64,000 nucleotides of DNA from an uncultured Fibrobacterota bacterium (GCA_963753345.1 CAVWBU010000049.1:32001-96000); one strand, 5' to 3'. Shown: positions 738 through 53,609, numbered from the stretch's first letter. Numbers and translations: made by a program. The notes: generated by a model from the sequence alone, not told the origin.

Positions 738-1138
738 GGTGGGGGAGGTTTCCCCCTCGCTCCGGCCTCCTCGGCCTTTGGCCTGCGGTGTCCTTCGCTA
801 CCCCCTCCTGGGTAGCCGCCTTGATAAAGCAGTTGCAAGACCAGGCATTGTTGTGGCGGCACCCACGAGCGATATCCAAGAAAAGTTGAAAGTTGACAGT
901 TGGCAGTTGACAGCAGGACTGGGAAAAGAAAATCCGAGTTTGTTTTGAGTGTTCCGATTGGCGCAATAATAAAGCTAGACTGAATAGACTTCTTCTGCCG
1001 CGCGTTAGGTGGACCGGAGGGTGCGCCAGAGCGCATTGTCGCCTGATCCCCAGCCGAAGGCGATAGGGACAGGCGGCAACGAGGCCGAAGGGACGAGCCC
1101 GGAGGGAGACCGGCCCGAACGTAGCGAGGGCAACGCCC
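738..1138. repeat. Composite structured intergenic element: unit A (738-865), AGTTGAC-type heptamers (884-914), unit B (1002-1138, +)
   Basis: Near-collinear with 11232-11634 and with the reverse complement of 5929-6346. Confidence 0.92.
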
Positions 1139-1192
1139 TGCTTTTATCTCGCTTTGTAAAGCGGTGCCCCCACCAGGATTTGATCTTCTTCT

Positions 1193-1927
1193 TTATATCC
1201 GCACCATCATCGCCAGCCCAATCGCCTTATAGAGCGCCTTCACAAGCGGGGGCGCCCAGAAGCGTTTGGCGTACTTTACGATGTCCTTGTCCGGGTGTTT
1301 CTCTTTCTTGAAAAGCGAATACAAAAACGGCCGGTCGGTGTTGCTTTTCCCCGTTCGTTCGTACACGAGCCGTCCGGTCCTGTCCCAGACCTGCACGTGG
1401 AAGCTCGTCTTTGCGGTGCAGGTAACGGGCCGTTCGTACCCCGGGCCGAACCTGTCGTTGCGCCATCCCGCCGGCTTGATCGTGACCTGCCGTATGGTGA
1501 GGGAATACGGAATCACAACAAGGTCCGCGTTGTATTTGTCGGCGAGCTGATGCACGCGTCCTGAGACACGCTGCAGGAAAGCAGTGTCGCGGTCGAGCCG
1601 CGAGTACCCTGTCCGCGGGAATAGGGCGAGCGAGTCGGATTCGTCGCGCTTGGGTGCGCTGCAGGTCCTGAAATTCTTCGAGACTTCGTAGGCGAGCAGG
1701 CGGTTGGCCGCTTCAACGAAGAATGAATCGGGAAACAACGTGTCGGGCGACGAGGTTGTGTTGTCAACGTACGTCACGCGCAGGCTGTCGAGCGGGATGC
1801 ACAGGGCCGTCTTGCCCCGGTCGAGAAGCATGTTCGAAGGATCGCTTGTGTAAGTTGCCATGCGGCCGGCGCAGCCGGATAGAACCAGCGCGGCGGCAAG
1901 GATAACGGAGAGGGAAATTTGTTTCAT
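1193..1927 (-). CDS. Hypothetical lipoprotein
   Basis: MKQISLSVILAAALVLSGC lipobox signal; start re-set to this Met. Confidence 0.75.
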   Translation of the reverse strand: MKQISLSVILAAALVLSGCAGRMATYTSDPSNMLLDRGKTALCIPLDSLRVTYVDNTTSSPDTLFPDSFFVEAANRLLAYEVSKNFRTCSAPKRDESDSLALFPRTGYSRLDRDTAFLQRVSGRVHQLADKYNADLVVIPYSLTIRQVTIKPAGWRNDRFGPGYERPVTCTAKTSFHVQVWDRTGRLVYERTGKSNTDRPFLYSLFKKEKHPDKDIVKYAKRFWAPPLVKALYKAIGLAMMVRI

Positions 1928-2092
1928 ACTTGTCCGGTTTGCAGTGGGTGAGGGCCGAATATGTATTTTCCTAACGTATGCCATCAATGGAAAGATAGAT
2001 GATCGGCCAGGGTTGCCGGTATCGGGGACTTACGAGCATGGGTTTTCGGAATCTCTGCGTATGAGCCATCCATGCGGCGCCTTTGTTTCGCC

Positions 2093-2132
2093 AACCCATC
2101 AATCAATCAACTCATGAATCCATCAACCCATT
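2093..2132. repeat. Degenerate octamer tandem repeat (AAYCMATC-like, x5)
   Basis: aacccatc aatcaatc aactcatg aatccatc aacccatt. Confidence 0.6.
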
Positions 2133-2166
2133 CACGCTGGCTTTCCTTTAGAGAAAGGAGTGGCCT

Positions 2167-2940
2167 ATGAACAAACAAATGGTGACGCTGTTTTCGGTTG
2201 TGTGTGCCGCAATTGTCGTCGCGGTGATCGTTTTCGCCGTGGTGCCGAAGAAGGCCGCCCAGTCGGGCGCCAAGTCGGGACAGACCCTGGAGCAATCGGG
2301 CCAGTTCGATGCCGCGATGTCGGCCTATGCGTCCGCGCTTGTAAAGCTTTCGGAAGGCCGCCGCTTTACCGGCATTCCCGACAATACCACTGCCGCCAAC
2401 CTCAAGCCTCAAACCTGGGAAAAGCCCATTGCCGATTTCGTGGACTGGCTCAACGCAGGCGGAAAGGCCACCCCGGAGGTTGCAGATCTTATCGGGGGGC
2501 TTGAACGCTGCATGCCGAAGGTGAAATACGAGAATTTCGTTTTCGATTTTAAGATGAAGAAGGCCTCGGCGGCCGATTATGCCGCTGTGTGGCGCCAGGT
2601 GTTTTGTCCCGAGGGAACGTGTCCGCCCGCCGTGATCGAAAAGGCGTTTGCCCAGAGCGACGTTATCGTCACGCTGCGGGGCAACAACATATATTCGTAT
2701 TTGGTAAGCCTTGTCAACGGCGAATCCGGCAAGCGCACCGATGTCCCCGTCGAGCAGGACATGACCCCTTCGTTTCTCGCAAAGCCGGGCAAGTACTGCC
2801 TTGTCATCAAAAGCACCACCATGTTCAAGGACAAACGCGAGTGGGTCTCCGGCCAGGAGGCCGTGACGTTTGTTGTGCCCGATTCCGTTACCGTGATGTC
2901 GGCGCTCTTGAGGACCGAGGTGGGCAGGGTGGCAAGGTAA
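2167..2940 (+). CDS. Hypothetical protein with N-terminal membrane anchor
   Basis: AGGAG RBS, hydrophobic N-terminus, 257-aa ORF. Confidence 0.75.
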   Translation: MNKQMVTLFSVVCAAIVVAVIVFAVVPKKAAQSGAKSGQTLEQSGQFDAAMSAYASALVKLSEGRRFTGIPDNTTAANLKPQTWEKPIADFVDWLNAGGKATPEVADLIGGLERCMPKVKYENFVFDFKMKKASAADYAAVWRQVFCPEGTCPPAVIEKAFAQSDVIVTLRGNNIYSYLVSLVNGESGKRTDVPVEQDMTPSFLAKPGKYCLVIKSTTMFKDKREWVSGQEAVTFVVPDSVTVMSALLRTEVGRVAR

Positions 2941-5338: not shown

Positions 5339-5362
5339 GCCCTTTTTTCGGAATGTAGGAAG

Positions 5363-5902: not shown

Positions 5903-5928
5903 ATAGCGAGAGCGATGAAAGAAGAGTT

Positions 5929-6346
5929 GGGCGTTCCCCTCGCCTTCGCTCGGGTTGGCCCTCCTTACGGTCTCGGCCGCCGGCCTCGGGCTGCCACGGC
6001 CCCTAGGCCGGAGTACCGGCGGGGTCCGGGCAGCATCCCGCTTTGGCGGGACCTCCAGTCCGGCCTAACGCAGCGGCAGAAGAAATCTCATTAGTCAATC
6101 TTATTTCTCCGCCATCCAGAATCCCACATTATCCGACAAAGATTCTTCTTGCTTTCAACTGTCAACCGACAACTGCCAACTTTCAACTCTGTTTCTCGGT
6201 GCCGCCACAACAATGTAGGGTTTTGCAGCTGCTTTGTCAAGGCGGCCACCCAGGAGGGGGTAGCGGAGGACCGGCCGCGCACTCCAGAATACCTGTTTAT
6301 CAATGAGCGCAACCGGGCCGTAGCGAGGGGGAAACCTCCCCCACCC
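5929..6346. repeat. Composite element, inverted: unit B (5929-6071, -), heptamers (6151-6188), unit A (6196-6346)
   Basis: Reverse complement of the 738-1138 architecture, with variant arms. Confidence 0.92.
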
Positions 6347-9981: not shown

Positions 9982-11022
9982 CTACTGCCGCACGACGATG
10001 CGGCGGCCCGCCTCGCCGAAGACGCCGCGCACGGACGCGAGGTAAACGCCGGGCGCAAGCGACCGCAGGTCGAGCGAAAAAGACCGCGCAACGCCGCGGC
10101 TGGAAAGCACGCGCCGGCCATCGATGCACACGACCTCTGCCGCATAGGCCTGCTCGGACGGAAGCTCGACCGAAAGCCGCGAGCCGAGATTCGTGACGCC
10201 GGCCGCGGGCGCGCTTCGGCGTGCCGCCGCAGGCACGCCGACGTTTATGGTGGGGTCCCAATTGTAAACACGGACGTAATCCACGACAAGGCTTTCCGGA
10301 AAGATGGTGGAGTTGTCGATGTTGCCGTCGAAGTTACCGCCCACCGCAAGGTTCAGAATAAAGTAATATTGTTTGTCGAACGGGACGTTGGGGTGGGCGT
10401 CTTTGGTGAGAGTCCCGAAATACACGCTGTCGCAAAACCAGCGTATCGAATCGGTGCTCCATTCGACGCCGTAAAGGTGAAAGCTGTCGTGGACGTTCCC
10501 CTTCGGCAGCGTGTACTGGTTAAAGAGGTCGTAATTGGTGCAATGATACGATCCAGACGTCCAGTTCGGCAGACGGCCCTTGCCTTCCATTATGTCAATT
10601 TCTCCGCAGGCCGGCCATCCGCCGCCCACGCCGAGCATCCAGAACGCGGGCCACATGCCCTGGGTGATAGGCAGGCGCATGCGCGCTTCCATGCGTCCGT
10701 ACATGAATGTTTGCTTCCCCGAACTTTGAATCTTGCCGGAGGTAATTTCCCCGGAGTTTGTTGTCTCGAGGATCAAGCAGCCGTTCTTGACGAACACGTT
10801 CGATCCTGCCTTGTCGTGTCCGGCGGTGTAATGTTCCTGTTCGGCATTAGGAGGATTGTCCGTTTGCTGCACCGTCCAGTTTGCCTCGTTGAGCGCGGTA
10901 CTGTCGAATTCGTCGGACCAGAAAAGCTTCCAGCCGCCGGCAATAGCGTTTGTCAAGATGACAGCCACCAGGAGCGCTGCGGTGCGCAACGCTTCAGTTT
11001 TCAAAGATGTCCCACGGAACAT
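9982..11022 (-). CDS. GH16 beta-glucanase with C-terminal sorting-type domain
   Basis: WSDEFD, WPAFWMLG, EIDIME catalytic motif, LNLAVGG. Confidence 0.93.
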   Translation of the reverse strand: MFRGTSLKTEALRTAALLVAVILTNAIAGGWKLFWSDEFDSTALNEANWTVQQTDNPPNAEQEHYTAGHDKAGSNVFVKNGCLILETTNSGEITSGKIQSSGKQTFMYGRMEARMRLPITQGMWPAFWMLGVGGGWPACGEIDIMEGKGRLPNWTSGSYHCTNYDLFNQYTLPKGNVHDSFHLYGVEWSTDSIRWFCDSVYFGTLTKDAHPNVPFDKQYYFILNLAVGGNFDGNIDNSTIFPESLVVDYVRVYNWDPTINVGVPAAARRSAPAAGVTNLGSRLSVELPSEQAYAAEVVCIDGRRVLSSRGVARSFSLDLRSLAPGVYLASVRGVFGEAGRRIVVRQ

Positions 11023-11231: not shown

Positions 11232-11634
11232 GGGGGGAGGTATCCCCCTCGCTTCGGCCTCCTCGGCCTTTGGCCTGCGGTATCCTACGCTACCCCCTCG
11301 TGGGTAGCCCCCAAGAAAGTTGATTTGCGAGAAAGAAACTTCGGCTGCGGGGGCACCGAGAAGAATAGTTGAAAGTTGACAGTTGGCAGTTGACAGCAGG
11401 ATTGGGGAAAAGTTCCTGGTTTGTATTGAGTATTCCGATTGGCGCAATAAAAAACCAGCCTGAATAGACTTCTTCTGCCGCGCGTTAGGTGGACCGGAGT
11501 GGTCCCGTCATAGCGGGATTGCCGGCCGACCCCCGGCCGAAGGCCATCGGGGCGGTCCGGCAACGAGGCGAATAGCCGAGCCCGGAGGGAGACCGACCCT
11601 TGCCTTCGTTTTAACGAAGGCAAGGGGAACGCCC
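11232..11634. repeat. Composite element: unit A (11232-11358), heptamers (11367-11397), unit B (11482-11634, +)
   Basis: Closely matches 738-1138, including the linker. Confidence 0.92.
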
Positions 11635-11662
11635 AAGATCTCTCGTTATCTCAAGAGAAAGT

Positions 11663-18724: not shown

Positions 18725-18839
18725 ACAGGAGCTCCCTATCGCAGTCCTACCACATAGTATAGCACGGGATTGAGGGGTTTGCCAGATTTTGTTGGGGAGA
18801 CTAGGGGAATCCAATTCATTAGAATACATGAGAAGAGAT

Positions 18840-18975
18840 GGGCGCCCCGCCGCTTCGCGGCGGCGGCCCTCCTTCCAGGCTCGGCCTTTGGCCTCGTTGC
18901 CGCCTGTCCCGACCGCCTTCGGCGAGGGATCAGGCGGCAATGCGCTCTAGCGCACCTTCCAGTCCGGCCTGGCGC
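18840..18975 (-). repeat. Unit B; its linker is interrupted by IS5 and the heptamers resume at 19985-20016
   Basis: Minus strand reads GCGCCAGGCCGGACTGG...GGAGGGCC...GGCGCCC. Confidence 0.9.
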
Positions 18976-19031
18976 GCGGCAGAAGAAGTCTATTCTGTCA
19001 AGTTTGATTTCTGCGCTGGCTGGAATACTAA

Positions 19032-19953
19032 GAGCTTATCCATAAATAAGAATTGTGGTTAATGTCGGCATATATGATATTATTTCCATGGAAGAACCAA
19101 AAAAACGCAGGCTCTATTCATGGGAGATATCGGACGAGTTCTGGGCGAAAGTTGAACCGTTAATACCGAAAAAGAAGCGTGATCGCCGTCAGAAGTTCGT
19201 TCGTGAATCAGGAGGTGGACGGAAACCCATATCACCTCGTCTTGTTTTGGCTGGGATAGTTTTTGTTCTTCGGACGGGAATTCAATGGAAAGCGCTTCCG
19301 AAGACTCAATTTGGCAGTCCAAGTGCAATCCATCGCTATTTTCTTGAGTGGCAAAAGGCCAGATTCTTCGAGAAATTGTGGAAAGCAGGGATTGCCGAAT
19401 ACGACGATATGGAAGGCATAGCCTGGCAATGGCAAAGTATTGATGGTGGGATGAACAAAGCCCCACTTGCACTTGAAAATGTCGGCCACAACCCAACTGA
19501 TCGGGGAAAAAAATGGCAGCAAGCGAAGCATACTCGTCGACGGTCGTGGCATCCCGCTGTCGCTCGTCGTGAGCGGAGCACAGAAGCACGACGTGAAGTT
19601 GCTGCCTGATACACTTGACAACATTATGATAGAACGTCCAACAACAAAAGCTCGTCGGAGACAGCATTTGTGTGCTGATAAAGGGTATACAGGAGAGCCC
19701 GCGTTCAACCAGTGTGTCGAGCGGCGATATATCCCTTGCATTCGGCAACGAGGAGAAGAAATTGAAATGAAGCGCAGGAACCCAAGGTTCAAGGCGCAAA
19801 GATGGGTTGTGGAGCGATGCTTGTCGTGGCTCAACCGCTTCAGAAAATTGCTGGTTCGTTTTGAAAAACTTGCTCGTAGTCATACAGGTTTACTACAGTT
19901 GGCTTGTGCAATAATATGTTTCAGACAATCAACTTTTATTTATGGATAAGCTC
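19032..19953 (+). mobile_element. IS5-family insertion sequence, 922 bp
   Basis: 18-bp perfect inverted repeats GAGCTTATCCATAAATAA; TAA target-site duplication (19029-19031 and 19954-19956); lower GC. Confidence 0.93.
19088..19949 (+). CDS. IS5-family transposase in two overlapping ORFs, probably joined by -1 frameshift at GGGGAAAAAAA (19503-19513)
   Basis: LRTGIQWKALP, SIDG, ADKGY and RWVVERCLSWLNRFRKL motifs. Confidence 0.9.
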
Positions 19954-20023
19954 TAAGATCAAACCGCCAATGTTGATTCTTTAAGCTGTCAACTGTCAAC
20001 CGCCAACTGTCAACTCTCTCTAG

Positions 20024-20884: not shown

Positions 20885-21225
20885 GGTGGGGGCACCGCTT
20901 CGCGTTTCCCCCTCGCTGCGGCCTCCTCGGCCTTCGGCCTGCGGTGTCCTCCGCTTCCCCCTCCAGCAAAGGGGCGCGCCGAAGTCGCTCGCTTGACGCT
21001 CGCGAGGCGTCGCCCCTTCGCAACGCAACCGCTGTGGTATGCCGCTACGCGGCGATAGTATATGAGGATGCAAGCAATTGCCTGTTGCGCTTGCGCCAGG
21101 CCGGACTGGAGGCCGCGCTGGAGCGCGGTGCCGCCAGGACCCGCCGCAACGCGGCATTGGGCCGTGGCGGCCCGAGGCCTGTGGCCGAGACCGGAAGGAG
21201 GGCCGCCGCCGAAGGCGGGGCGCCC
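20885..21225. repeat. Composite element: variant unit A (20885-21020) and unit B (21093-21225, +)
   Basis: Core motifs shared with the other copies. Confidence 0.85.
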
Positions 21226-33302: not shown

Positions 33303-33457
33303 GGAGGGGGAGGTGTCCCCCTGGCCCCCGGCTTCCGTCGCCGCAGGTCTATAATGTCAATTTCGAGCGGCGACGGTGATCCGGGGGCACACCCCCTGGT
33401 GGGTAGCCCCCTTGACGGAGCGGCGGCAAACCAGAAACATTGTTGCGGGGGCACCCA
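33303..33457. repeat. Solitary unit A
   Basis: GGGGGAGGTGTCCCCCT[arm]ACCCCCTGGTGGGTAGCCCCC...GGGGGCACCC. Confidence 0.85.
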
Positions 33458-33621: not shown

Positions 33622-34453
33622 ATGCCGGATATTTTCGCCTACAGCGACAGCCGCCTGTTTCTTAAGGACTACTACGCCGAACACAAGAAGGCGCATCCTT
33701 CCTTTTCGTACCAGTATTTCGCGAACAAGGCCGGGCTGAAGTCAAAGACATTCATCTACAAGGTCATCGCGGGCCAGAAGACGCTTTCAAAGGGTGCGGT
33801 GTTTGCCGTGGCCCAGGCAATGGGGCTTAACAGGAAAGAAACCGAGTATTTCGAAGCCATGGTACATTTCACGCAGGCAAAGACCGGACGGGAGCGCGAG
33901 TTCTATTTTAACCACCTGCAGGCGTTCGGCAAGCATCACACTTCCGCGCAGCTTCGGCAAGACCAGTTTACGTATTTCTCAAAGTGGTACTATCCGGCCC
34001 TGCGCGAGCTTGTCGCGTTTCTCGACTTCAAAGACGATTTCAAGATACTTGCCCGAACACTCAACCCGCCCATTACAACACCTCAAGCCAAAAAGGCAGT
34101 TCGCCTGCTGCTGGACCTGGGCCTGATAAAACGTATGGCCTCGGGGCGATACTTCCAGACCGATAAATCGATAACCACCGGTGATCAGGTTCGGTCGCTT
34201 GCCGTCGCCGCTTTTCAAAAGGAGAACCTGCGGCTTGCCACAGAATCCATCGACCGCCACAAGCGGCAGCTCCGGGACATCTCCACCCTGACCGTCGGCA
34301 TCTCCGAAGCCGGGTTCCAGCGTGTAACGCGAAGAGGTCGCCGCGTTCAGAAAGCGGCTGGCCGAAATGGTTGAGAAAGATGATCCTGTCGATAGAGTGT
34401 ATCAGATAAATTTTCAGGTGTTCCCGCTCTCAACACCGCCCAGGAAGGGATAA
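33622..34453 (+). CDS. TIGR02147 (Fibrobacter paralogous family) protein, frameshifted near 34330
   Basis: FLKDYY..HK...SFSY..FA.KAG and YFSKWYYPALREL; C-terminal VYQINFQVFPLS lies in the shifted frame. Confidence 0.85.
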
Positions 34454-34456
34454 CCT

Positions 34457-36269
34457 ATGCGCAGCAAACTTTTTATCGCCGTCCTTTGCCTCACCCTGCC
34501 GTTTATGGCATGCGTAAAGAATATTGCGGGCGGAAGCACCGAGACAACTAATCCGGCCGTCTCCGCCATGCTCTACAATCCCGGCGGGTCGCCTGCGGCG
34601 CATGCAAAAGTAAGATTCTATCCGATCAATTATAATCCCCGCACAGGCGGCCTGGCCAAGACACTGGCGGCGGTCGTGGACTCAACCACCACCGATGCTA
34701 GCGGTAATTATACTGCCAAGCTCGACACCGGCACGTACAACGTGCTCGCCGCCGGCGACAGCGGCGTCGTGTACCAGGACTCGATAACCGTTGTCAAAGA
34801 CTCAACACGTTCACCCGCCCGCGGACACGCTGAAAGCGCCGGGATCGATCCGAGGAGTAATTCGGCTGCAACCGGGTGATGATGCAAGGACAGTGTTTAT
34901 CCTGTTTATGGGGACAAATACTTGGGGATACGCCGGAAGACTGCCATTGGCAGTTTACCGTTGCAAACATGGCGGAAGGAACGTACAGGGTGAGGATTTC
35001 TGACGACGTTGGATGCGTATGTGCCGAAGGACACGGTGCTGAGCGTGACGTGCAGGGAAGACGGATTCGCTGCCGCATGATATTGTGCTGCAATATACGG
35101 GGATTCCGGTGCCGAGAGGGTTGAAGATCTGCTATGATACATTGAAGCAGATCGTGACGTTGACGTGGAACAGACCAACAACTGGAAGGAAAATCGCCGC
35201 ATACAACATTTACAGAAAGGAACAAGATTCTAGCTTCGCAAGGATCAGAAGCAATGTCCAAGATACCACTTTTTCAGATAGTACTTTACGAGCAAGCGCC
35301 ATTTACGAATATAGAATCGCGGCTGTCGATACGCAAAATACCGAAGGAACACAAAGTCCATCTATAACAATGAACTTTCACAACCGTTTTAACCTAGTCA
35401 CGAGCACGACTGCTTTTGGCAGAAGGCAAGAGCATAGCAGCGTAGTTTTTGATAACAGAATGTGGGTTTTCGCCGGAACTGACGGGTATAATTTGAAGAA
35501 TGATGTTTGGTATTCGACTGATGGCAACTCTTGGACGCAAGCAACGGACTCCGCCAGCTTTGCCAAAAGGCGAGGTCACACATCAGTTGTCTTTAATAAT
35601 AAAATGTGGGTCATTGGAGGTCTCGCCGACAATGGAACGGGGGGCTTTGATGATGCGAGTGATGTTTGGTATTCTACGGATGGCATTTCGTGGATACAGG
35701 AGGCAGCTTCGCCAGATTCCATTTTCTCCGGAAGAGTTGCCCATGCAAGTATTGTCTTTGACAACAAGATTTGGGTCATCGGCGGGTCTGCCAGTAGCGG
35801 CCTTCTGAATGATGCTTGGTATTCCACTGATGGGATTTCTTGGATAGAGGCTACAAATTCAGCCGCCTTTGATAAAAGACTTGGTCATCGCCTTTTTGTT
35901 TTCAAGAATAAAATGTGGCTCGTAGGCGGGAATGACAACAGCGGATTCAAAAACGATGTTTGGAATACACAAGATGGCGTTACTTGGAACGAGGTCTCTA
36001 ACTCAGCTAGTTTCGATGCGAGATATGGATTTGCTGCCGATGTCTTGGATAGCACAATTTGGCTTGTCGGCGGGTACGGCATGCCTGGTGGCACGCTTGG
36101 TCCATTTGATGACGCATGGTATTCTGAAGATGGCGCCCTGTGGAGACAATTCAATATCCCCCCAAATCTCACAGCGAAATTTAACCAATCGTCAGTTGTT
36201 TTCTCAAATGAACTATGGATTATCGGGGCAAATAATTCGGGTGCCAGTGACGTTTGGGCTCTAAGATAG
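34457..36269 (+). CDS. Lipoprotein with carboxypeptidase-regulatory-like, Fn3 and kelch-repeat domains, broken by about 4 frameshifts (34805-35055)
   Basis: FMAC lipobox; protein continues across frames; about 5 repeats of R..H.svVF.nkmWv.GG..DvW.s.DG. Confidence 0.75.
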
Positions 36270-36309
36270 CTGGGTCGCACTATCCATGTCGCCTTGACAA
36301 ATGCTGAAG

Positions 36310-36335
36310 AGCCGGAAGGATTTCTCCTCCCGGCT
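36310..36335. terminator. Hairpin between convergent genes
   Basis: agccgg-aggA...tcct-ccggct stem. Confidence 0.45.
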
Positions 36336-36365
36336 TCATGCAAACGCAGCCGCAATTCCTGCAAG

Positions 36366-39300
36366 CTATTTCTTCTTGTTCAGTTTATCAAATTCCTTTT
36401 TCAAAGATAGCATTTGGTTCTGCTGCTCCTTTATGGCTTCGATAAGAACGGCGACCATGTTGGGATAATTTACGCCCAACATGCCCTTTTCTGATTGGGT
36501 AACCAACTCTGGAAGAACATGCCTTACTTCTTGGGCGATTAGCCCATAAGTTGAAACACCCATGTTTGCTTCTTTCTTCCAATCAAAAGCGACTCCTCGT
36601 AATTTCATTACTTTACCAAGCGCATGTTCTATCTTCCGAATATTCTTCTTGAGTCGCTTGTCAGAAGGGGTCTTGATAATATTCCCACTACTATCACACG
36701 ACAGAGGAGCGGCACCAGAATTCAAATTGCTGGCATGAATCGTGCCATTTACGTCTAATTTCTGCACCGGGTTCGTCAAACCTATTCCTACGTTTCCTCC
36801 GATTTTCACCATAAGCAGGCTACTGCTTGTATTATTGAGTACCTGAAACGGATCGGGGACCGAGGCGACAAAGTCCCAATGGCTGTTTACGGTGTGTCCT
36901 GATTTTGAATTGAATCCGGCCTGTACGCCATTATTGAAGGTCTGTGCGAAACCCGTGATTTGAACACCGGTGGCGTTCCACGCGCCGCCGCCACTGTCGC
37001 TCCATCTGAACGTGTTTGTCTTTTCCCAGTTGCCAGTCCCAGTCTGGCTGAATTGTCCACTGAATTGAAACGTATTCTGATCAACACGCGTAATGACATA
37101 GACGCCATTATAGCTGTTTGGCCCGGAAATTGTAACTTCATTGCCCGTTGACAACCCGTGGTTGTTCGAGGTTGCATTTACAAGGTTGGTGCCCCCGTTG
37201 GCAAATGCAGTGATGGAACCGGTCACGACCGTCTCGATTTGCACTCTGTAATTGGTGTTCCCGTTTTGTCCGGTATAAATACCGCTCGCGGTCATGTCAT
37301 TCAGGCCGGGTCCGGTAAAGGTGGGAGCATTAACCTGAGAGATCGGCACCACATTGGTCAACCCGACATTGCCAATCACATTGAACCGATTGTACACTGC
37401 GCTGTTGGCCCCTGGGGCATTATCCCTGTAATCATTCCCATAAACCATTCCCACATCTGCGGTGGTGGCGATGTTAATACAATTTATGAATCCCGTGGAA
37501 TTGTGTTGGAAAAGACAACCATGAATTTGGATGCGTCCGGCAGTTGCGTTCACCCCTGCGGTTATCGCCTGTGTGTAGTCAATGAAGACAAAATTTGCGA
37601 TCTTAAGACAACCAGGGATTTGCCATAGTATAGTGTTGCCTCCAAGCCAACTCTGGAACACCCCCGTATTCAACAAGAGTATCGCCCCTCCATGATTCCC
37701 GCTGGAGTCGCCGAATATGCAATGGTTTCTATTATAGACGTTTGGACTATTTACATTGCCAACGTTCCCGCATGTGATTCGGACATTGCTTAGTTCCATT
37801 TCCGCTACTGCGCCGGTTGGGGCAGGAATATCCACGTAAATTCCGCAGTCCGCCATATCGAATTGTATGTTTGTTCCGAACAAACCTTGTACTGGACCAG
37901 TCGTTGAATCACTGCTAATCCAAATACCGTTATGTGCGAAAATGGCAAAAAAATCCTTGATTATCAAAAAGTTGGCCTGCTGTATTATTATTGCCGTCAT
38001 GTTTTGCACGAGGTAAGTATACCAGTCTTTTCTCTGTTGATCGGAGGAAGTCCAATCGAATTCGTTGAAATATGAGGGATTAAAAAACACTTTTTCAATT
38101 ATAGTTACGTCTCCCATGTTGTCGACGAGAATGCCGGTTTGCAATGGGAATCCATAAATGTTGTAAAGGTGGTTGCGTCCGCCAACGGCTTGGGCTACCA
38201 TAGAAATTCCCTGGTAGGGGTTTACAAGCGTCAAATTCATGGCTCTGTTGTCGCAACCTTTCCCACTATATCGGGGGCTAGTGTTTGCCTGGAATTCTAT
38301 GCAATACGGATAAGGTTGAACGTTAAACGAAGTACCCTGGGTAGCACCACTAAGATACTGGACCGGATAAAAAATAGTCAATCCCTCTATGACACTTGAG
38401 CCGTTAATAGCGCCCACTTGGGGGTCATTGATGCCGCCTGATAGGATTATGAACGACGGGCCTCCGGAGCTACCGAAGTTCGACAGGCATAACAAAACTG
38501 GCCCCTGGGGAGTTCCTTTGATCCAGAAGTTTTTCATCCATACCGGTGGTGCAGACCTCATCCCACGCAGTATTACATTAGAAGGCACTAAGATAGAGGC
38601 GGAATTGTTGTTGAATACATAGTACCCGTTAGGAACATACACCACACCGCCACCCTCCGCGGACGCAGCCGAAAGGGCATTATTGAAGGCTAAGGTATTG
38701 TCCACGGTTGTTGCAGCAGAAGTTACCTTCCAGGAAACATTGCCCGGTAGAGCGGAGTAGTTGTTAAACGAACCATTAATCGTGATTGTACCATCTACCA
38801 CAGTTCGCACGGTATACGCTCCGCAATTCTGGTTGTTGTGAATCCAAAGAGTGTCACCAGAAGAAACATTTGACATTGTTATGCTTGAGTCTGTTAGGGT
38901 ATTCGCTGAAGAAGAAGAAATTGTTCCAGACAAGCTCCATACTTTGACAAAAAGCGGTATTGCCCCATAATCAAGCACATTATACACTTTCTGTGTCGTC
39001 GCGACCCTATTGAACCCCGGATACCCCGTCCCGTCGTCGATCCTAATGTTTCCATTAACTTGAAGTGCCTCTTGGGGAGTTGTCGTCCCAATTCCTACTT
39101 TTCCCCCAGAATCCAAACGCATTTTGCAAGTTCCGTTAAGACGAAAATTTATTCCATTCTGGCCCGAACCAAGATTGTCAATAAGAGTCGCATTGCTATC
39201 TATTCCCCCTCGAGCTGATCCACCCTGAGCGACCATAGTAACGGCATTCGAATTGTCGGCAATAATTCCAATCGAAGATAGTTTGCCACTGTTATTCCTT

Positions 39301-39542
39301 TGTACAACCAATTGGTAGCCGTCCGCATCATTTTGAACCTTTAGGTTTTCATTGCCCAAGAAGCTGGTTGCGCCAATTTTGACTGGGCCAGAAAAGGCTC
39401 CTGAACCGGCAACGTCAAGTTTCGAACCCGGCGATGTCGTTCCAACGCCGACGTTTGTCCCGTCGTCCAGAATTTGGCTGTCTGTCAAATGTTGAACAGT
39501 TGTCGTGTCGCTGGCTTTTTGGATTTTGTTTACCGTTGCCAT
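36366..39542 (-). CDS. Tail-fibre/tailspike-like protein: VGIGT repeats, pectate-lyase-like beta-helix, C-terminal S74 chaperone domain
   Basis: NVGVGTTSP repeats; NVLDYGA and GGVVYVPNGYY; SDKRLKKNI...GLIAQEV...LIEAIKEQ. Confidence 0.82.
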   Translation of the reverse strand: MATVNKIQKASDTTTVQHLTDSQILDDGTNVGVGTTSPGSKLDVAGSGAFSGPVKIGATSFLGNENLKVQNDADGYQLVVQRNNSGKLSSIGIIADNSNAVTMVAQGGSARGGIDSNATLIDNLGSGQNGINFRLNGTCKMRLDSGGKVGIGTTTPQEALQVNGNIRIDDGTGYPGFNRVATTQKVYNVLDYGAIPLFVKVWSLSGTISSSSANTLTDSSITMSNVSSGDTLWIHNNQNCGAYTVRTVVDGTITINGSFNNYSALPGNVSWKVTSAATTVDNTLAFNNALSAASAEGGGVVYVPNGYYVFNNNSASILVPSNVILRGMRSAPPVWMKNFWIKGTPQGPVLLCLSNFGSSGGPSFIILSGGINDPQVGAINGSSVIEGLTIFYPVQYLSGATQGTSFNVQPYPYCIEFQANTSPRYSGKGCDNRAMNLTLVNPYQGISMVAQAVGGRNHLYNIYGFPLQTGILVDNMGDVTIIEKVFFNPSYFNEFDWTSSDQQRKDWYTYLVQNMTAIIIQQANFLIIKDFFAIFAHNGIWISSDSTTGPVQGLFGTNIQFDMADCGIYVDIPAPTGAVAEMELSNVRITCGNVGNVNSPNVYNRNHCIFGDSSGNHGGAILLLNTGVFQSWLGGNTILWQIPGCLKIANFVFIDYTQAITAGVNATAGRIQIHGCLFQHNSTGFINCINIATTADVGMVYGNDYRDNAPGANSAVYNRFNVIGNVGLTNVVPISQVNAPTFTGPGLNDMTASGIYTGQNGNTNYRVQIETVVTGSITAFANGGTNLVNATSNNHGLSTGNEVTISGPNSYNGVYVITRVDQNTFQFSGQFSQTGTGNWEKTNTFRWSDSGGGAWNATGVQITGFAQTFNNGVQAGFNSKSGHTVNSHWDFVASVPDPFQVLNNTSSSLLMVKIGGNVGIGLTNPVQKLDVNGTIHASNLNSGAAPLSCDSSGNIIKTPSDKRLKKNIRKIEHALGKVMKLRGVAFDWKKEANMGVSTYGLIAQEVRHVLPELVTQSEKGMLGVNYPNMVAVLIEAIKEQQNQMLSLKKEFDKLNKKK

Positions 39543-39594
39543 AGTTCGTCTCCTTTGTTAAAGGACTCCGCGAGACGCTCATTAGTCTCAATTG

Positions 39595-39798
39595 TTAAAT
39601 TTTGCTCCATATTCTCGCCTTCATCATCTGCACGACGTTGATGTGGTTATCCACTTGATCATTGTACCCCTTGACGGCAACCTCGAAATGTTCTTTCGCC
39701 TGGTAGACGGCAGTTTTGCCTGCACCGCCTGTTGGCACACCACGTCCGGGTTTACAGTGTTTTGGCTTTGCTGCATAAAACCTCACTTTCCTTGACAT
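39595..39798 (-). CDS. Possible small protein upstream of the tailspike-like gene
   Basis: 67-aa co-directional ORF; no clear RBS. Confidence 0.3.
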   Translation of the reverse strand: MSRKVRFYAAKPKHCKPGRGVPTGGAGKTAVYQAKEHFEVAVKGYNDQVDNHINVVQMMKARIWSKI

Positions 39799-40051
39799 TT
39801 GGTTTTGTGTGTTATTTCAAATGTGAACGCAAATGATACACGGGCCTGACCACGAGCGTATTCCGCAAATGTCAAGCAGCCAGTGGTGCATGGGGAGGGA
39901 GGTTTGTCGAATCAAAGCTTGACAAAGGACACTCTCAATATACAATCGCCGGGGGGGGCATTGTCAAGACAAAACTGGGGATATTTGGGCGTGCGTTCCG
40001 GCTTGCTGTTGCAGGCTACTCCGCAACTTCTCAGTACAATTCCCGCCTAAC

Positions 40052-40841: not shown

Positions 40842-41054
40842 TGAAAAAGGTGTTGAAATTGACGAGATTTCAGGGGTGATAAAGCAAGGTGTTTGATGAT
40901 GGAACATCAGTCCAAAGTTTATTGTATGATTATGAAACGTCTTTGGTATGATGCACGAGGTGATTGATCTGCGCATTAGTCAATGATTGATCCGTTCCAC
41001 CGCCAAACGATCTGCGGTCACCGACATTCAATTAAGCACCCATCGCCCGCCCGC

Positions 41055-41219
41055 GCGTTAGGCCGGACCGCAGGGGGCGCAAGAGCGCATTGTCGGCCGA
41101 CCCTCGCCGCAGGCGACTCGGGCGGTCCGGCAACGAGGCGAACAGCCGACGACCCTTGGAAGCACCCGAAGGGGTGGCCCGGAGGGAGGGCCGGCCCGAG
41201 TGCAGCGAGGGAAACGCCC
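41055..41219 (+). repeat. Solitary unit B with 27-nt insert
   Basis: GCGTTAGGCCGGACCG...GGAGGGCC...AACGCCC. Confidence 0.9.
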
Positions 41220-41272
41220 AATTCTTCTTTCAACCTCACTTGTCCTTGCGTATTCTCTTATTTTTACTTCTC

Positions 41273-41952: not shown

Positions 41953-42672
41953 ATGGTCACCTTCTCCTTCATCAGCAAACGTTACGGTTCGCATTCCGGC
42001 CTCGCGGTTGACAATGTCTCCTGCATCGTGGAGCGCGGCGAATTTTTCGCCCTGCTCGGGCCCAACGGCGCGGGAAAAACCACGCTCATCAAGATGCTGC
42101 TCGATTTTGTCAAGCCTACAAGCGGCGGTGCATCCATCAACGGAGTTTCGAGCGCTTCCCCTGCTGCGCGGGAGGGCGTTGGCTACCTCGCCGAAAACGT
42201 TCGCGTGCCCCTGCACCTGTCGGGCAAAGCCTACCTGCGCCGCCAAGCCGAACTGTGCGGCATGTCCGCGGCCGGTGCGGCCGGGACAATCGCCGAAGTC
42301 CTGGAAATCGTTGGCATGGCCGGGAAGGAAAATGCGGCGATGAAGACCTATTCCAAGGGCATGCTGCAGCGCATCGGGCTTGCCGCGGCCATGATACCGG
42401 GCACAAAGCTCCTGGTGCTTGACGAACCGGTGAGCGGCCTGGACCCGCTCGGTATCCGCGACGTGCGGCGCATTATGGAAGGACTCAAGCGGAAAGGCGT
42501 GACCATCATCCTCAATTCACATTTGCTGTCGGAGGTTGAAAAGACCTGCGACACTGCCGCCATCATCGACAAGGGGAGAATCGTCCTCAAAGGCGCGATA
42601 TCGTCCATTGTCCGCGAGGGCGAGACGCTCGAAGACGTGTTCGTGCGCGTGATCGAAGGGCAGCATGCGTAA
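41953..42672 (+). CDS. ABC transporter ATP-binding protein
   Basis: GPNGAGKT, YSKGM, LDEP, H-loop. Confidence 0.95.
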   Translation: MVTFSFISKRYGSHSGLAVDNVSCIVERGEFFALLGPNGAGKTTLIKMLLDFVKPTSGGASINGVSSASPAAREGVGYLAENVRVPLHLSGKAYLRRQAELCGMSAAGAAGTIAEVLEIVGMAGKENAAMKTYSKGMLQRIGLAAAMIPGTKLLVLDEPVSGLDPLGIRDVRRIMEGLKRKGVTIILNSHLLSEVEKTCDTAAIIDKGRIVLKGAISSIVREGETLEDVFVRVIEGQHA

Positions 42673-43473
42673 TTTCTTCCATATTGTAAAGTATACGGTT
42701 GTCGACATCATCCACCAGAAGAGCTTTCTCGTGCTGCTCATCGTGAGCATCGGGTTCGTAATGTTGCTCCGCGGCTGCTACTCGGGCAATTACACGGTGA
42801 ACGGCAGAACGGTCGACGGTTTGACGGTCGCGTGGCACGCGTCCATCGTCGCGTTTCACGTTGTGGCTGCCGGTGTGCTGCTTATTGCCGCAATCTTTTC
42901 CATGAATCTGCTGAGGCGCGACCGCGAAGACGGGACCGCCCAGTACATGCTGTCCAAGCCTCTGCCCCGCATCACCTATGTGTTCGGCCGCGCGATCGGC
43001 GTGTGGCTTGTTTCATTCGCGTTCATGTTCGCGCTTCACCTCACCATTTTTATCATCACGCTCGCCAGCGCGGGCGGGACCATGCCCGGATACCTTGTCG
43101 CGTCGTGTGTGTGCTCCGCAAACGTGCTCTTTATGGTCCTGCTCGTGTGCCTGATGTCGCTTTACATGCCGGATTTCGCCGCGGCCCTTGCGGGATTGGG
43201 CGTGGCGGCGGTGAGCTACGCGGCCGACTCTTTTTTCCATGCCGCGCAGACCAGGCTGGTGCAGGCCATGATGCAGAACCATCCCCTGAACGCTCCGCCG
43301 TGGGCAATGGCCTGGCCCAAGGTATGCTCGCTGCAGGATTGCGCGGTTACCTTGATAAACGGCAAAGCCTTTCAGCCGATCGGGCCCGTCCATCCCGGTG
43401 ATCGTGATGGCCTTTTACGTAATGTGCTATCGCGGCCGGGCTGGTTCTGGCGTTCGAGCGCAGGGAAATCTGA
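42665..43473 (+). CDS. ABC-2-type permease, apparently frameshifted near 43395-43435
   Basis: TM helices, LSKPLPR motif; last TM segment and ...AFERREI* lie in shifted frames. Confidence 0.75.
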
Positions 43474-43495
43474 CACTTCCGGCAAAGGACACAGC

Positions 43496-44668
43496 ATGAA
43501 GACCCTCTATTTCGACCTCGTGTCGGGCGCAAGCGGCGACATGATCCTTTCATCGCTGATCGACACCGGCGTGCCCGTGGACTGGCTCCGGAGGCAACTC
43601 GCCAAACTGAGGATTCCCGGCTTCACCATTGACGTGGAAAAGCAGAAGCGGAGCGGGATTTCCGCCTCGCATCTTGTGATGAAGTGGGACGCGCCGCGCA
43701 CCTACCGCCACCTCCGGGATTTACTAGGCATGATCAAATCTGCGGGCTACGGCGCGGGCGTGTATTCCCGGTGCGAGTCGGTTCTTATGCGGCTGGGAAA
43801 AGCCGAGGCAAAGGTGCACGACATGCCGCTTGAAAAAGTCCACTTTCACGAGGTGGGCGCGGTGGATACGATTGTTGACGTCGCGGGAATCTGCCTGTGC
43901 CTGGAGAAACTCGCTGCAGACGAGGTGGTTTTCTCGTCGCTCACCGACGGCAGGGGCACGGTGAACACCCAGCACGGCGTGATGCCGGTGCCGGTGCCCG
44001 CCGTGGCTGCCATGGCACAGGGGTTCGATCTGCGGATACTTGACATTCAGGGAGAGCTTCTCACGCCAACGGGGTGCGCCGTTCTCACCGCGCTGGGCAG
44101 GCAAGTCACAACCGGCGTATCCGGCACGGTGCTCTCCACCGGCTACGGCTGCGGCGACAAGTCGTTCAAGGAAACACCGAACGTTCTCCGCGTGTTTCTA
44201 GTCGAGCGGGATATATCCTCGCCGGCCGGCCGCGTGTGCGTCCTGGAATCGGACATGGACCACATTTCGGGCGAGATCATGGCCGATGCGGCCGGAAGGC
44301 TCATGCGCGAAGGCGCGCTCGATGTTTCGTGGCTGCCGGTGTTCATGAAAAAGGGAAGGCCCGGCTACAGACTCACCGTGCTGTGCGCGCCGGACAAGCA
44401 GCAGGAACTCGTCGACGCCATTATTATTCACACACGCACGCTCGGCGTGCGCATGCGCATGGAAGACCGAGTTGTGGCGGAAAGAAAGCAGGGTACTGCC
44501 AAACTCCGGGGGCAGGGTATTGAGGTGAAGGAATGTTCGTACAAGGGGCACTCGTTTACAAAGCCGGAATACGAGGCGCTGGCGAGGATAAGCGAGAAAA
44601 CCGGGACGCCGGTTGTCGAGCTTATGGAGGAATACCACGAAGGGATAAGGCGGCCGCGGCGGCGTTGA
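43496..44668 (+). CDS. larC: Nickel pincer cofactor biosynthesis protein LarC
   Basis: LYFDLVSGASGDM, HFHEVGAVD, GELLTPTG, MKKGRPG, KPEYE; has its own RBS and ATG. Confidence 0.92.
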   Translation: MKTLYFDLVSGASGDMILSSLIDTGVPVDWLRRQLAKLRIPGFTIDVEKQKRSGISASHLVMKWDAPRTYRHLRDLLGMIKSAGYGAGVYSRCESVLMRLGKAEAKVHDMPLEKVHFHEVGAVDTIVDVAGICLCLEKLAADEVVFSSLTDGRGTVNTQHGVMPVPVPAVAAMAQGFDLRILDIQGELLTPTGCAVLTALGRQVTTGVSGTVLSTGYGCGDKSFKETPNVLRVFLVERDISSPAGRVCVLESDMDHISGEIMADAAGRLMREGALDVSWLPVFMKKGRPGYRLTVLCAPDKQQELVDAIIIHTRTLGVRMRMEDRVVAERKQGTAKLRGQGIEVKECSYKGHSFTKPEYEALARISEKTGTPVVELMEEYHEGIRRPRRR

Positions 44669-47743: not shown

Positions 47744-47760
47744 GAATTAGAAGAAGATAT

Positions 47761-48160
47761 GGGCGTTCCCCCGGTTGTGAAACACAACCGGGGTCGGTCT
47801 CCCTCCGGGCTCGGCTGTTCGCCTCGTTGCCGGACCGCCCTATGCCTATCGGCCGGGTCGGCCGGCAATTCGCTTTGGCTCACCCTCCGGTCCACCTAAC
47901 GCGCGCAAACAGGAATCTATTCTGTCAAGTGGTAATACTTGCGCAATGCGAAAATCTTGTTGATCAGCGCAGAAAATCCTGATTCGTCAAGCCTGCGGGG
48001 ATTGTGGAAGATTCCTGCTGCCAAGCGCCAGGCAGGACTGGAGGCCGCGCTGGAGCGCGGTGCTGCCTGACCACGGCCCGCAGGGCCCTCGTGGCAGGCA
48101 GCCCCGAGGCCGTAGGCCGAGACCGGAAGGAGGGCCGCCGTCGTCTTCTGCGGGGCGCCC
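47761..48160. repeat. Head-to-head pair of unit B: 47761-47902 (-) and 48025-48160 (+)
   Basis: Both copies carry the full core motif set. Confidence 0.9.
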
Positions 48161-48266
48161 AACTCATTTCTTTCCAATTCTATTCTGCAAAAAAAGTCCC
48201 TTTATCACCGTTTTCTATCTTATTTTTAATACAATGGCGAGGGCTGCCATTCCACAAGGAGGAACC

Positions 48267-51795: not shown

Positions 51796-51812
51796 ATTCT
51801 AAGATTTGAGTT

Positions 51813-52422
51813 GGGTGTTTCCCTCGCTACGCTCGGGCCGGTCTCCTTCCGGGCCACCCCTTCGGGTGCTTCCAAGGGTCGTCGGCTGTCCGCCTCGTTG
51901 CCGGACCGCCCCGATGGCCTTCGGCCGGGCACCCCGTCGGGTGCTTCCAAGGGTCGTCGGCCGGCAAAAGGCAAGAGACACAATGATGAAGCGCGAAGCG
52001 CTATTTCCATGCCTTGGGGAACGAAGTGACAATTCGCTCTGGCTCACCCTGCAGTCCACCTAACGCGGCGCAGAAGATCACCGCCAAATTTTATATCCGG
52101 CTTTCGCTTCTTTTATCCCTTGTCAAATCGGAGAGGTCCGTGCTGAGCGAGGTCAAAGCGGGCCGGGGGTGAGGTCAAATGAAATAGAACGATTGGTTTA
52201 GGAGATTAAAGGATAGAATAATTCCGAAAAGTCAAATCACCAGGTATCGCTTTTATCTGGGGATTATACAACAGGGCAATGCTCCATTGCCCTGCGCCAG
52301 GTCGGACTGAAAAAATGGTCCCGCTAAAGCGGGATTACCGCCTGACCACGGCCCGAAGGGGTAACGAGGCGAACAGCCGAGCCTGAAAGGAGGACCGCCG
52401 CTGCTTTAGCAGCGGGGCGCCC
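51813..52422. repeat. Head-to-head pair of unit B: 51813-52066 (-, with nested inserts) and 52294-52422 (+)
   Basis: Core motifs present on both; the first copy carries two 27-nt inserts. Confidence 0.88.
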
Positions 52423-52446
52423 ATTTTACTTGAATTTGATCGATTC

Positions 52447-52998
52447 TCACTTCATCACCTGAATTTCCTTCACCGTATTGTTTGTAAACTGAAGCGGGCC
52501 GCAGCAGGCGCCGTCAACGGCCAGCGAATATCCCTCTCCCATGCCTGCCAGCTTGGCCAGTTTTCCAACATACTGCTTTCCGTCGTTGAGGATCAGCCGC
52601 GCGGTTTTCCCGAATACATCGGCAGGCAGCTTGTCGCTTGCAAGCGTGTACGATGCCGTTTTCCCGTGCTTGCCGTAGTAATCCCACACCGCCACCTGCC
52701 CTCCGGATTGTTCGAAATGCAGCGCAAGTTCGCCCGGTTTCATCTGGCGCTGGACGTTGTTTTTGAACGTTACGGTGCCGGAAGACGGCGTGCCGTCGGC
52801 ATTGACGGAAAATGCGAATTCCGCTTCAATGCCTAAATACGATTCAGGATTGCTCACGGACATGGCGGTGATCCGGCCGCCGTTGTCCGTTACCAGCTTG
52901 AGCCCTTCAAACGTTTCTTCGCCGGCAAAAGAAGCTGTCGGAAACACGATCAATGCGCACAGCGAACTTAGCCCCCATGTCAATAATAGGTTTTTCAC
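52447..52998 (-). CDS. Unknown secreted protein, paralog 3 of 3
   Basis: AGGAGG RBS with GTG start, FKNNVQRQMKPGEL...TVKEIQVMK. Confidence 0.85.
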   Translation of the reverse strand: MKNLLLTWGLSSLCALIVFPTASFAGEETFEGLKLVTDNGGRITAMSVSNPESYLGIEAEFAFSVNADGTPSSGTVTFKNNVQRQMKPGELALHFEQSGGQVAVWDYYGKHGKTASYTLASDKLPADVFGKTARLILNDGKQYVGKLAKLAGMGEGYSLAVDGACCGPLQFTNNTVKEIQVMK

Positions 52999-53160
52999 GA
53001 TGACCTCCTTCTTACTTAGGAAAATACAATGCGCGCGAATTATCCGGTACGCCTCTATCATTTTCGCCCAATGAGACCGAATTCGAGGGGTCACAAGGCG
53101 GCCGTGTTTTTTGGGATGGTGTGAAATAAGAAAAAGACTCGCAGGAAAATAGAAAGACGT

Positions 53161-53609
53161 GGTGGGGGAAGTGTCCCCCTAGGGTTCAGCCAACCGGCGC
53201 AACGTCAGGCTCAAATGCGAATGTTGCCAGTTGTCTGAACCCATACCCCCTCGTGGGTGGCCCCCAAGTGTGTTGGTTTGCAAGAAAGAAACCTCTGCCG
53301 CGGGGGCACCGAGAAAGCGGGTTGAAAGTTGAAGGTATGAGAAGAATTCCTCACAGGCTTGCAAAGATGTTAGTTGGCGCAAGAAAGAAAATGTGACAGA
53401 ATTGATTTCCCCTGCCGCGCGTTAGGGGCGACTGGAGGCTGCGCTAGAGCGCGGTGCCGCCCGGACCCGCCGCGCTGCGCGGCATAGGGCCGTTGCGGCC
53501 CGAGGCCAAAGGCCGACGACCCTTGGAAGCACCCGAAGGGGTGGACCGAAAGGAGAACCGACCCCATGTAAATTCGCACAGTCGGGCGAATTCACATGGG
53601 GTAACGCCC
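53161..53609. repeat. Composite element: unit A (53161-53311) and unit B (53419-53609, +)
   Basis: Core motifs, residual heptamers and the 27-nt insert. Confidence 0.9.

Follow-up and report, generated by a model that had tools for sequence, protein, structure and literature searches.

The stretch of DNA analyzed here, 64,000 nucleotides from an uncultured Fibrobacterota bacterium (GCA_963753345.1, CAVWBU010000049.1:32001-96000; the window), carries two kinds of repeat between its genes, which we call unit A and unit B. The genes include those for FolD, an H+-pyrophosphatase, GH16 and GH30 enzymes, glycogen phosphorylase, MetK and a TIGR02147 (Fibrobacter paralogous family) protein; GC content ranges from 46 to 62%, and the cumulative GC skew climbs along the whole window. 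All 11 B and all 6 A copies are extragenic, lying between open reading frames (ORFs). An earlier note, made from the sequence alone, had proposed that the units fold as single-stranded DNA (ssDNA) and pair head-to-head, in the manner of REPINs, the doublets formed by repetitive extragenic palindromes (REPs). Unit B has a genuine fold, established by covariation, and it is far more elaborate than known bacterial intergenic repeats. The features of the window are listed here by position and strand; P1 to P6 and P5a are helices of unit B, H1 to H3 are hairpins of unit A, H4 is a hairpin of the spacer, and all B units were located with the covariance model R1.

740-817, + strand: unit A with hairpins H1, H2 (variable) and H3, purine-rich loops on the - strand (pattern scan and hairpin list).
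815-995, + strand: spacer S, with covarying H4 (about 815-860), four AGTTGRM heptamers at 884-911, and the AT-rich 5' extension of B, TTGGCGCAA ... TGAATAGACTTC.
996-1145, + strand: unit B, P1 type TT/AA (136.3 bits).
5922-6077, - strand: unit B of the composite 6343-5922 (121.2 bits).
6078-6343, - strand: spacer S (heptamers 6154-6188, and H4) and unit A (6244-6343) of the same composite.
11232-11641, + strand: composite of unit A (11232-11309), spacer (heptamers 11367-11394) and unit B (11476-11641).
18833-18981, - strand: unit B, the top-scoring copy, P1 type CC/GG (146.2 bits).
19028-19957, + strand: IS5-family insertion sequence with two overlapping ORFs and inverted ends (DUF4096 and DDE_Tnp_1 matches).
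20885-21232, + strand: composite of a variant unit A (20885-21010) and unit B (21087-21232).
33305-33453, + strand: unit A (33305-33408) and H4 with no following B, a truncated composite absent from the earlier note.
41049-41226, + strand: solitary unit B with the optional P5a.
47754-48167: head-to-head pair of unit B on the - strand (47754-47908), a 110-nt spacer, and unit B on the + strand (48019-48167).
51806-52429: head-to-head pair of unit B on the - strand (51806-52072, with a large P4 insert) and unit B on the + strand (52288-52429).
53163-53616, + strand: composite of unit A (53163-53262), spacer, and unit B (53413-53616, with P5a and a long P6).

Repeat families are already visible in the window by exact-seed repeat finding. 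Model R1, built from 10 window copies, returns 11 copies there (E <= 2.7e-12), with the next match at E = 0.48. The units are 130 to 267 nt long and occur about once per 6 kb; ten of the window copies are 51 to 83% identical in pairwise comparison (median, 69%). The octamer GCGYYAGG occurs 21 times in the window against 10.0 expected, and 11 of the 21 are the start of a B unit. A pattern scan over one genome per species, with a pattern that required P5 and one junction strand, gave at least 80 loci, cited here by L numbers, in which model R1 finds at least 32 further B units (E <= 1e-4). Unit A is known in 18 copies from a pattern scan, 6 of them in the window. Counts of loops, strands and folding energies refer to 39 complete B units, 11 from the window and 28 from the loci.

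Compensatory change runs through the fold of unit B. In the model alignment, 15 of 27 pairs are altered on both sides, and in a revised fold that includes cross-strand pairs 18 of 32 are; in each case none of 500 shuffles matched the figure. Paired cells make up 84.7% of the revised fold, against 76.1% in shuffles and 34 to 51% with slid partners. P1, the helix between GCGYY and RRCGC, closes the unit; at its two variable positions 27 copies have TT/AA, 10 have CC/GG, one has CG/CG and one TT/AG. L073 has UC/GA there, and one copy carries an A.C in P1. P2 follows the general form GGYC/GRCC, occurring as GGU/ACC, GGCC/GGCC, GGGC/GCCC or GGC/GCC, and some subtypes contain G.A mismatches. Two further strands of the form CYGNARG could be taken for GNA mini-hairpins, a candidate that we rejected: pairing within each strand gives 10 wobbles and 2 mismatches among 36 copies, whereas pairing between the strands is possible in 36 of 36. 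In anchored columns, Y5 pairs with R12 and R9 with Y8 in 36 of 36 copies, and in the larger set both cross-strand pairs form in 41 of 41 (CG 25 and UA 16 for one; GC 33, AU 7 and GU 1 for the other). Because these strands pair with each other, unit B is a rod that closes a hairpin junction. From its foot the rod runs through P1, one bulged A and P2 to a GGA/GAG loop; two pairs separate this loop from a GNA/GNA loop, beyond which two or three more pairs follow. Above it lies the junction with hairpins P3, the long P4, and P5, plus the optional P5a, a conserved extra hairpin present in 13 of 43 copies. P6 branches between P2' and P1' near the 3' end and is highly variable in length, as P4 is variable too. 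The whole unit amounts to seven or more helices with long-range closure.

The units are built as mosaics, in that B cores 89% identical are joined to different P1/P2/P6 sets. Nine palindromes of 28 to 29 nt with the form GTAGRG...CYCTAC were found in the scanned loci (L015, L017, L029, L034, L037, L058, L066 and L080), all of them at hairpin tips of units: seven in P6, one in P4 and one in H2 of a unit A. Given that all nine occupy such tips, and none lies elsewhere in the DNA read, we do not regard them as independent REPs; they look like a portable optional module.

The strand of B that folds is the one bearing GCGYYAGG, as the earlier note had claimed, and loops, mismatches and folding energy agree on this. 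The six GNA loops that the note quoted are all present in the sequence. Counting perfect stems of at least 3 bp with a 3-nt loop, we found 70 GNA triloops (65 closed by C-G), 6 TNC triloops and 106 others on this strand of the 39 complete units; mononucleotide shuffles of the units gave 11.0 GNA and 4.2 TNC. Of the 70, 23 lie in the two mutually pairing junction strands and so are not hairpin loops, which leaves 47 GNA against 6 TNC. Loops of four show the same preference, with 17 GNNA to 2 TNNC overall and 14 to 2 outside the junction strands. GNRA loops number 7 against 1 on the opposite strand, and UNCG loops number 0 against 2. Helices predicted for both strands contain six single mismatches of the G.A or A.G kind and none between pyrimidines. 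Folding energies favor the sense strand for 34 of the 39 units under RNA parameters and for 37 under DNA parameters; both parameter sets prefer the same strand, and the choice between them cannot serve as a discriminator between RNA and DNA. The tally of G-T against A-C mismatches by strand that the note had proposed was flat. Among 1285 Watson-Crick pairs there are 4 G.U and 5 A.C, which carries no strand signal and was set aside as a test of either strand or RNA. G.U makes up about 1.3% of consensus cells, and a few sense-only G.U pairs exist, such as column pair 68-191, where UG occurs five times.

The carriers of the repeat are Chitinivibrionales-like Fibrobacterota. Among the matches listed, the strong B matches belong to three metagenome-assembled genomes (MAGs), labelled Fibrobacteres, Fibrobacterota and Chitinivibrionales. 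Over 1021 nt, window positions 53546-54565 and locus L037 (DATFYJ01) share 88% identity, and the genome of the window is therefore related to, but distinct from, that of L037. Relatives are also found in proteobacterial MAGs, as shorter B-like units with weaker similarity: L018 (927-1067) and L073 (915-1072), both from one MAG labelled Deltaproteobacteria, and L051 (947-1033), labelled uncultured proteobacterium. These retain the junction strings, P5, the cross-strand pairs and the CCA that follows P1 (see below); since the scan pattern demanded P5 and one junction strand, only the remaining features are independent evidence. They also bring new P1 variants (CG/CG and UC/GA) and GNRA loops in P3 (GUGA and GGGA, in L018 and L073). 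Their occurrence means that the B family crosses phyla or was transferred.

Unit A is not demonstrably a relative of B. Its reverse complement matches the 3' half of B at 48 of 78 positions, against 49.4 +/- 2.1 in shuffles, so homology of the two is not supported; they share only short motifs, one being AGGCCAAAGGCCGAG, which occurs in a single A subtype. Read on the same strand as its neighboring B, unit A has six TNC triloops and one GNA triloop, and its H3 loop is pyrimidine-rich, whereas the strand opposite to B carries the purine-rich loops, with GAA and AAA triloops. Five of the six TNC triloops come from one hairpin subtype, which makes the evidence thin. The earlier note had suggested that A and B fold on opposite strands and so diverge; the position of the purine-rich loops supports this geometry, on few independent loops.

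In all 17 A-B composites the two units are written on one strand, with A 150 to 330 nt upstream of B, and the five A+B composites that had been noted in the window are confirmed. B-B pairs less than 300 nt apart are head-to-head in four of four cases (the two of the window, as the note had it, L043 and L056); three of the four are copies of one composite, 79 to 82% identical through the spacer, so that at most two independent arrangements are represented. In the window pairs the distances from P1 start to P1 start are 122 and 227 nt. The arms are 65% and 45% identical, and a B-B pair therefore cannot form a single long hairpin.

The spacers, 110 to 270 nt long, are kept across three assemblies in an alignment of 21. 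Their constituents are the covarying H4 (GCCGCC/GGCGGC or GCCCCC/GGGGGC), CACCGAGAA and a heptamer, AGTTGRM, present two to four times; an AT-rich block, TTGGCGCRAGAA-N-TTGACNGAATAGAYTTC, also belongs to them, stops a few bases short of P1 and precedes one arm of the B-B pairs as well. A search for the heptamer gave 16 matches where 0.16 were expected. About half of the B copies have a conserved, unstructured, AT-rich 5' extension of 45 nt with TTGAC. Composites are about 400 to 460 nt long and contain no ORF. The proposal that A and B are mix-and-match ends stands in part: different B subtypes occur freely behind the same A-spacer, but pairs are copied as whole composites with the spacer conserved. 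The IS5-family element at 19028-19957, foreign to the repeat family, interrupts the spacer between a heptamer array (19988-20015) and the B unit at 18833-18981. A free-standing heptamer array also occurs at 2948-2975 (AGTTGAA AGTTTAA AGTTTAA AGTTGAA), with no A or B nearby, about 320 nt upstream of the H+-pyrophosphatase gene.

The 3' flank of unit B is also conserved. Directly after P1 there is an unpaired CCA resembling the 3' end of a tRNA, with CC in 37 of 37 copies and A in 33 of 37, and beyond it a T-rich run, starting 3 to 5 nt after P1, with a mean of 5.9 T at +6 to +15 and no G at +6 to +10. Upstream of B, TGCCGC is common, and the strand is pyrimidine-rich there too. By reading, the left flank of A mirrors the right flank of B in being A/G-rich; no fixed tetranucleotide is shared by the left flanks of the 18 A copies. 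We looked for pairing of the flanks with the unit core and found nothing convincing. In consensus scans of nine units, the 60 nt upstream contained no sigma-70-type promoter in any case, and one unit only had a terminator-like 3' end (1127-1139). Intrinsic terminators have a GC-rich hairpin with a T run immediately behind it on the sense strand; in spite of the T-rich run, the units do not qualify as such. Other genes of the window have TTGACA/TATAAT-like promoters and AGGAGG ribosome-binding sites. A TTGACA-17-TACATT string inside H4 of one composite recurs weakly in other copies and was not accepted as a promoter, and a search for the Bacteroidetes-type TAnnTTTG promoter motif gave nothing convincing.

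The units are dispersed through intergenic regions of every kind, between convergent, divergent and co-directional genes, and their neighbors in the loci are unrelated housekeeping genes. The gene 3' of B in the window is convergent in six cases and co-directional in five, some of these gene calls being ORFs without a family. Locus L016 and the composite at 53163 are antisense to both neighboring genes. Copies also turn over, as seen at the one orthologous site available: at the end of a lipid A acyltransferase gene, the window and L037 both have a B unit, of different subtypes, and the L037 unit, which lacks P5a, is 98.75% identical over 80 nt to another copy of the window. Unknown ORFs beside the units matched no Pfam or NCBIfam family, and there was no usable Atlas match for the one at 52450-53094.

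Several other features of the window were recorded. Directly downstream of a composite, a low-GC segment (about 0.46) at 22152-24061 encodes an EcoRV-like restriction endonuclease and a D12-class adenine methyltransferase. Two GH16 paralogues (9985-11022 and 25226-26272) share 71 to 86% DNA identity over most of their length. A low-GC stretch at 34000-40000 encodes a Kelch-repeat protein, with a DNA repeat every 144 to 159 nt (35475-35988), and a 1058-residue protein with a terminal Peptidase_S74 (endosialidase chaperone) domain. Two unusual Pfam fusions are an ABC-2 membrane domain with a LarC-like nickel insertion protein (42665-44665) and a biotin/lipoyl domain with KAS III (62544-63863).

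As far as searched, in Rfam and in tRNA, plasmid, phage and literature searches, the repeat has not been described before. Rfam 15 gave no match at gathering score and nothing recurrent at E <= 1 or 10. A twister-sister hit was rejected because it scores 23 bits against a threshold of 34, occurs in one copy, and aligns so as to pair the GGC of P1' with P5, contradicting P1. ARAGORN finds no tRNA or tmRNA gene in the window despite the stem-plus-CCA end. The plasmid and phage collections hold no match to the units, six unit strings do not occur in a literature search, and the literature on Chitinivibrionia repeats, judged by titles and abstracts, contains nothing relevant.

Among the closest known systems are the bacterial interspersed mosaic elements (BIMEs) of enterobacteria, high-copy extragenic arrays of inverted REP units (single hairpins of about 35 nt) with conserved linkers, mosaic subtypes and strand-specific folding. 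The present repeat resembles them in being high-copy and extragenic, in combining two inverted unit types with conserved linkers (A-spacer-B in 17 of 17, B-B in 4 of 4), in its mosaic subtypes and in folding on one strand. It differs in that its units are not REP palindromes and have no GTAG head, and in its spacers with their hairpin, heptamers and AT-rich block. A REP is one short imperfect palindrome, about 20 to 40 nt, headed by a GTAG-type tetranucleotide, and in a REPIN two almost identical inverted REPs form a single long hairpin. The strict analogy with REPINs and the REP-associated tyrosine transposase (RAYT) fails: inverted doublets, many extragenic copies and the lack of an internal ORF are shared, but the units here are larger and more complex, at 130 to 267 nt and seven or more helices, the arms are too unlike each other, and GTAG occurs only in the optional 28- to 29-nt tip module. 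No RAYT gene was seen in the 64-kb window and 31 two-kb loci (76 window ORFs and 123 ORF pieces).

The ends of IS200/IS605 elements and of their derivatives without an ORF, palindrome-associated transposable elements (PATEs), offer other parallels, namely unlike ends (A and B), no strict terminal inverted repeat (TIR), no duplication seen and a strand-specific fold. PATEs have a fixed 4- to 5-nt target directly 5' of the left end, without target duplication. Here the ends are far larger and solitary units are common; the left side of A has no short conserved target, and neither tnpA nor tnpB was seen. Integron attC sites carry R'' (RYYYAAC) at the 5' side and R' (GTTRRRY) at the 3' side and stand in arrays of one orientation separated by cassettes. 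They share with unit B an ssDNA fold that pairs the two ends of the site, structure kept while sequence varies, and a variable tip, and some GTTAGGC starts of B fit GTTRRRY. The order of core sites is reversed in B, which begins with GTTAGG, CC takes the place of TT in 10 of 39 copies, and units stand in both orientations among housekeeping genes; attC is ruled out by this order, orientation and context. BOX, ERIC, bcr1 and HEARO/omega RNA are similarly modular, with many copies, compensatory changes that keep the fold, and optional modules; unit B differs in having no Rfam match, DNA-optimal loops, almost no G.U, and no associated ORF in the copies seen. Single-strand origins (sso), single-strand initiation sites (ssi) and G4-type signals are, like unit B, orientation-specific folded DNA of about 150 to 250 nt with several hairpins, among them GNA and GNNA mini-hairpins (PMC13037366); those are single-copy on plasmids and phages, whereas the present units occur in many chromosomal copies.

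Our tentative reading, to which we give somewhat less than an even chance, is that A and B are modules of a BIME-like, non-autonomous, dispersed mobile repeat that is read as ssDNA. Copies would arise, disappear and recombine as DNA. It would be ssDNA that adopts the fold, whether on the lagging-strand template or after extrusion from the duplex, and an enzyme whose gene lies elsewhere in the genome would read it, cutting and joining at the foot of the rod beside the conserved CCA. The DNA-type loops and the nearly pure Watson-Crick stems lean toward folding as ssDNA. Terminal loops of B, counted without the junction strands, are cGNAg in 47 cases and GNNA in 14; GNRA loops number 7, and UNCG is absent. 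As the earlier note had stated for GNA triloops, such loops are of the DNA-optimal kind: cGNAg and cGNNAg mini-hairpins are reported to be extraordinarily stable in DNA and to depend on the C-G closing pair (PMC13037366, PMC3201870), while RNA counterparts are much less stable, r(GCGAAAGC) melting at 39 C (PMC13037366). On the other side, the complexity of the fold, the conserved CCA and the T-rich tail lean toward RNA, and neither set of evidence is decisive.

Several observations weigh against the ssDNA reading. Reading the flanks of the five window composites, we saw no target-site duplication. The 76 window ORFs and the 123 ORF pieces from 31 loci, which together sample a few percent of a genome, include no gene for a RAYT, a Y1/HUH enzyme, a reverse transcriptase or an integrase. 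B units lie seven on the + strand and four on the - strand of a window whose GC skew rises throughout, so that no replication-strand bias is clear. Between co-directional genes, five of six solitary B units are co-oriented with the genes and one (L016) is opposed. To our knowledge, every known ssDNA substrate of such enzymes, including REP, IS200/IS605 ends and attC, has a much simpler structure than this one with its seven helices. Conserved purine loops, optional domains and long-range closure are features usually met in structured RNA, and the CCA and T-rich tail resemble an RNA 3' end. The 45-nt AT-rich 5' extension could be a promoter of unfamiliar type, and the low G.U count could come instead from few, young master copies.

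The close rival, a real possibility that we nonetheless regard as slightly more doubtful, is that the repeat is transcribed and works as structured RNA, B from its own strand and A from the opposite one. This could be a small RNA module with its own unusual promoter in the 5' extension, processed to a stem-plus-CCA end, or a co-transcribed element that stabilizes, terminates or insulates transcripts and spreads like BOX, ERIC, bcr1 or HEARO/omega RNA. Such a molecule would be well described by a rod and junction with symmetric purine loops, strong covariation, an optional P5a and variable P4 and P6, and the conserved CCA before a T-rich run, kept in proteobacterial L018 and L073, fits it too, as do the TTGAC of the extension, the co-orientation of solitary units, the GUGA and GGGA variants in P3 and the few sense-only G.U pairs. 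These points have to be set against the predominance of DNA-optimal triloops with few GNRA and no UNCG, the rarity of G.U, which does not exceed A.C, and the blank results from Rfam and ARAGORN. No sigma-70-type promoter precedes any of the nine scanned units, though such promoters stand before other genes of the organism; many units point at the 3' end of a gene convergent with them, and L016 and the composite at 53163 run antisense to the genes on either side. We know of no trans-acting small RNA family that approaches 11 copies in 64 kb.

Two further explanations keep the molecule as DNA, and we consider both improbable. The composites may be miniature inverted-repeat transposable elements (MITEs) moved as duplex by a DDE transposase, with the mirrored flanks (AAGAAGAG... 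on the left, ...CTCTTCTT on the right) as TIRs and the folds incidental or selected later. Elements of about 400 to 460 nt without an ORF, whose right flank beyond B is rich in T and whose left flank before A is rich in A/G, copied whole with their spacer in a genome that contains DDE insertion sequences, would suit this account. It does not sit well with the lack of visible target-site duplications at the five window composites, with the existence of solitary B units and a solitary A, or with compensatory change in every helix and long-range pairing in 41 of 41 copies, neither of them expected of an element recognized by its duplex ends alone; nor would a duplex substrate have any use for the strong asymmetry between the strands in loops and mismatches. 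This is the least probable of the accounts considered, if only slightly. Alternatively, the repeat may serve the host as an ssDNA signal, its clusters of mini-hairpins that resist single-stranded DNA-binding protein (SSB) acting as ssi/sso-like priming or assembly sites. IncQ-type origins combine divergent units with iterons, a layout that the divergent pairs and heptamers would echo, and composites do join heptamer repeats, an AT-rich stretch and one folded unit per strand. Mini-hairpins of the CCGAAGG and GCGNAGC types are reported to occur at single-strand initiation sites and to bind SSB poorly (PMC13037366). Many copies per 64 kb in both orientations without replication-strand bias, turnover between related genomes, and the insertion sequence tolerated inside one composite make this improbable as well.

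If the ssDNA reading is pursued to its end, B may be the substrate of an undescribed single-strand-acting mobile system, a seven-helix module of about 150 nt with a CCA foot, an order of magnitude above REP, IS200/IS605 ends and attC and common to Fibrobacterota and proteobacterial lineages; equally, it may represent a new, ornate, high-copy RNA class with a tRNA-like stem-CCA end. We regard this larger claim as rather unlikely.

Known folding bacterial repeats are mostly single hairpins, such as REP, or foldback MITEs. The repeat described here is multihelical, covaries in the manner of curated RNAs, and reaches into a second phylum. Folded repeats also account for assembly breaks in these MAGs: in DATFYJ01, several contigs terminate within or beside a unit. 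Read as RNA, the units would constitute a new high-copy structured class with a stem-CCA end; read as DNA, they would greatly widen the range of structures that single-strand transposases or recombinases are known to recognize, and would be a case of natural DNA mini-hairpin motifs under selection.

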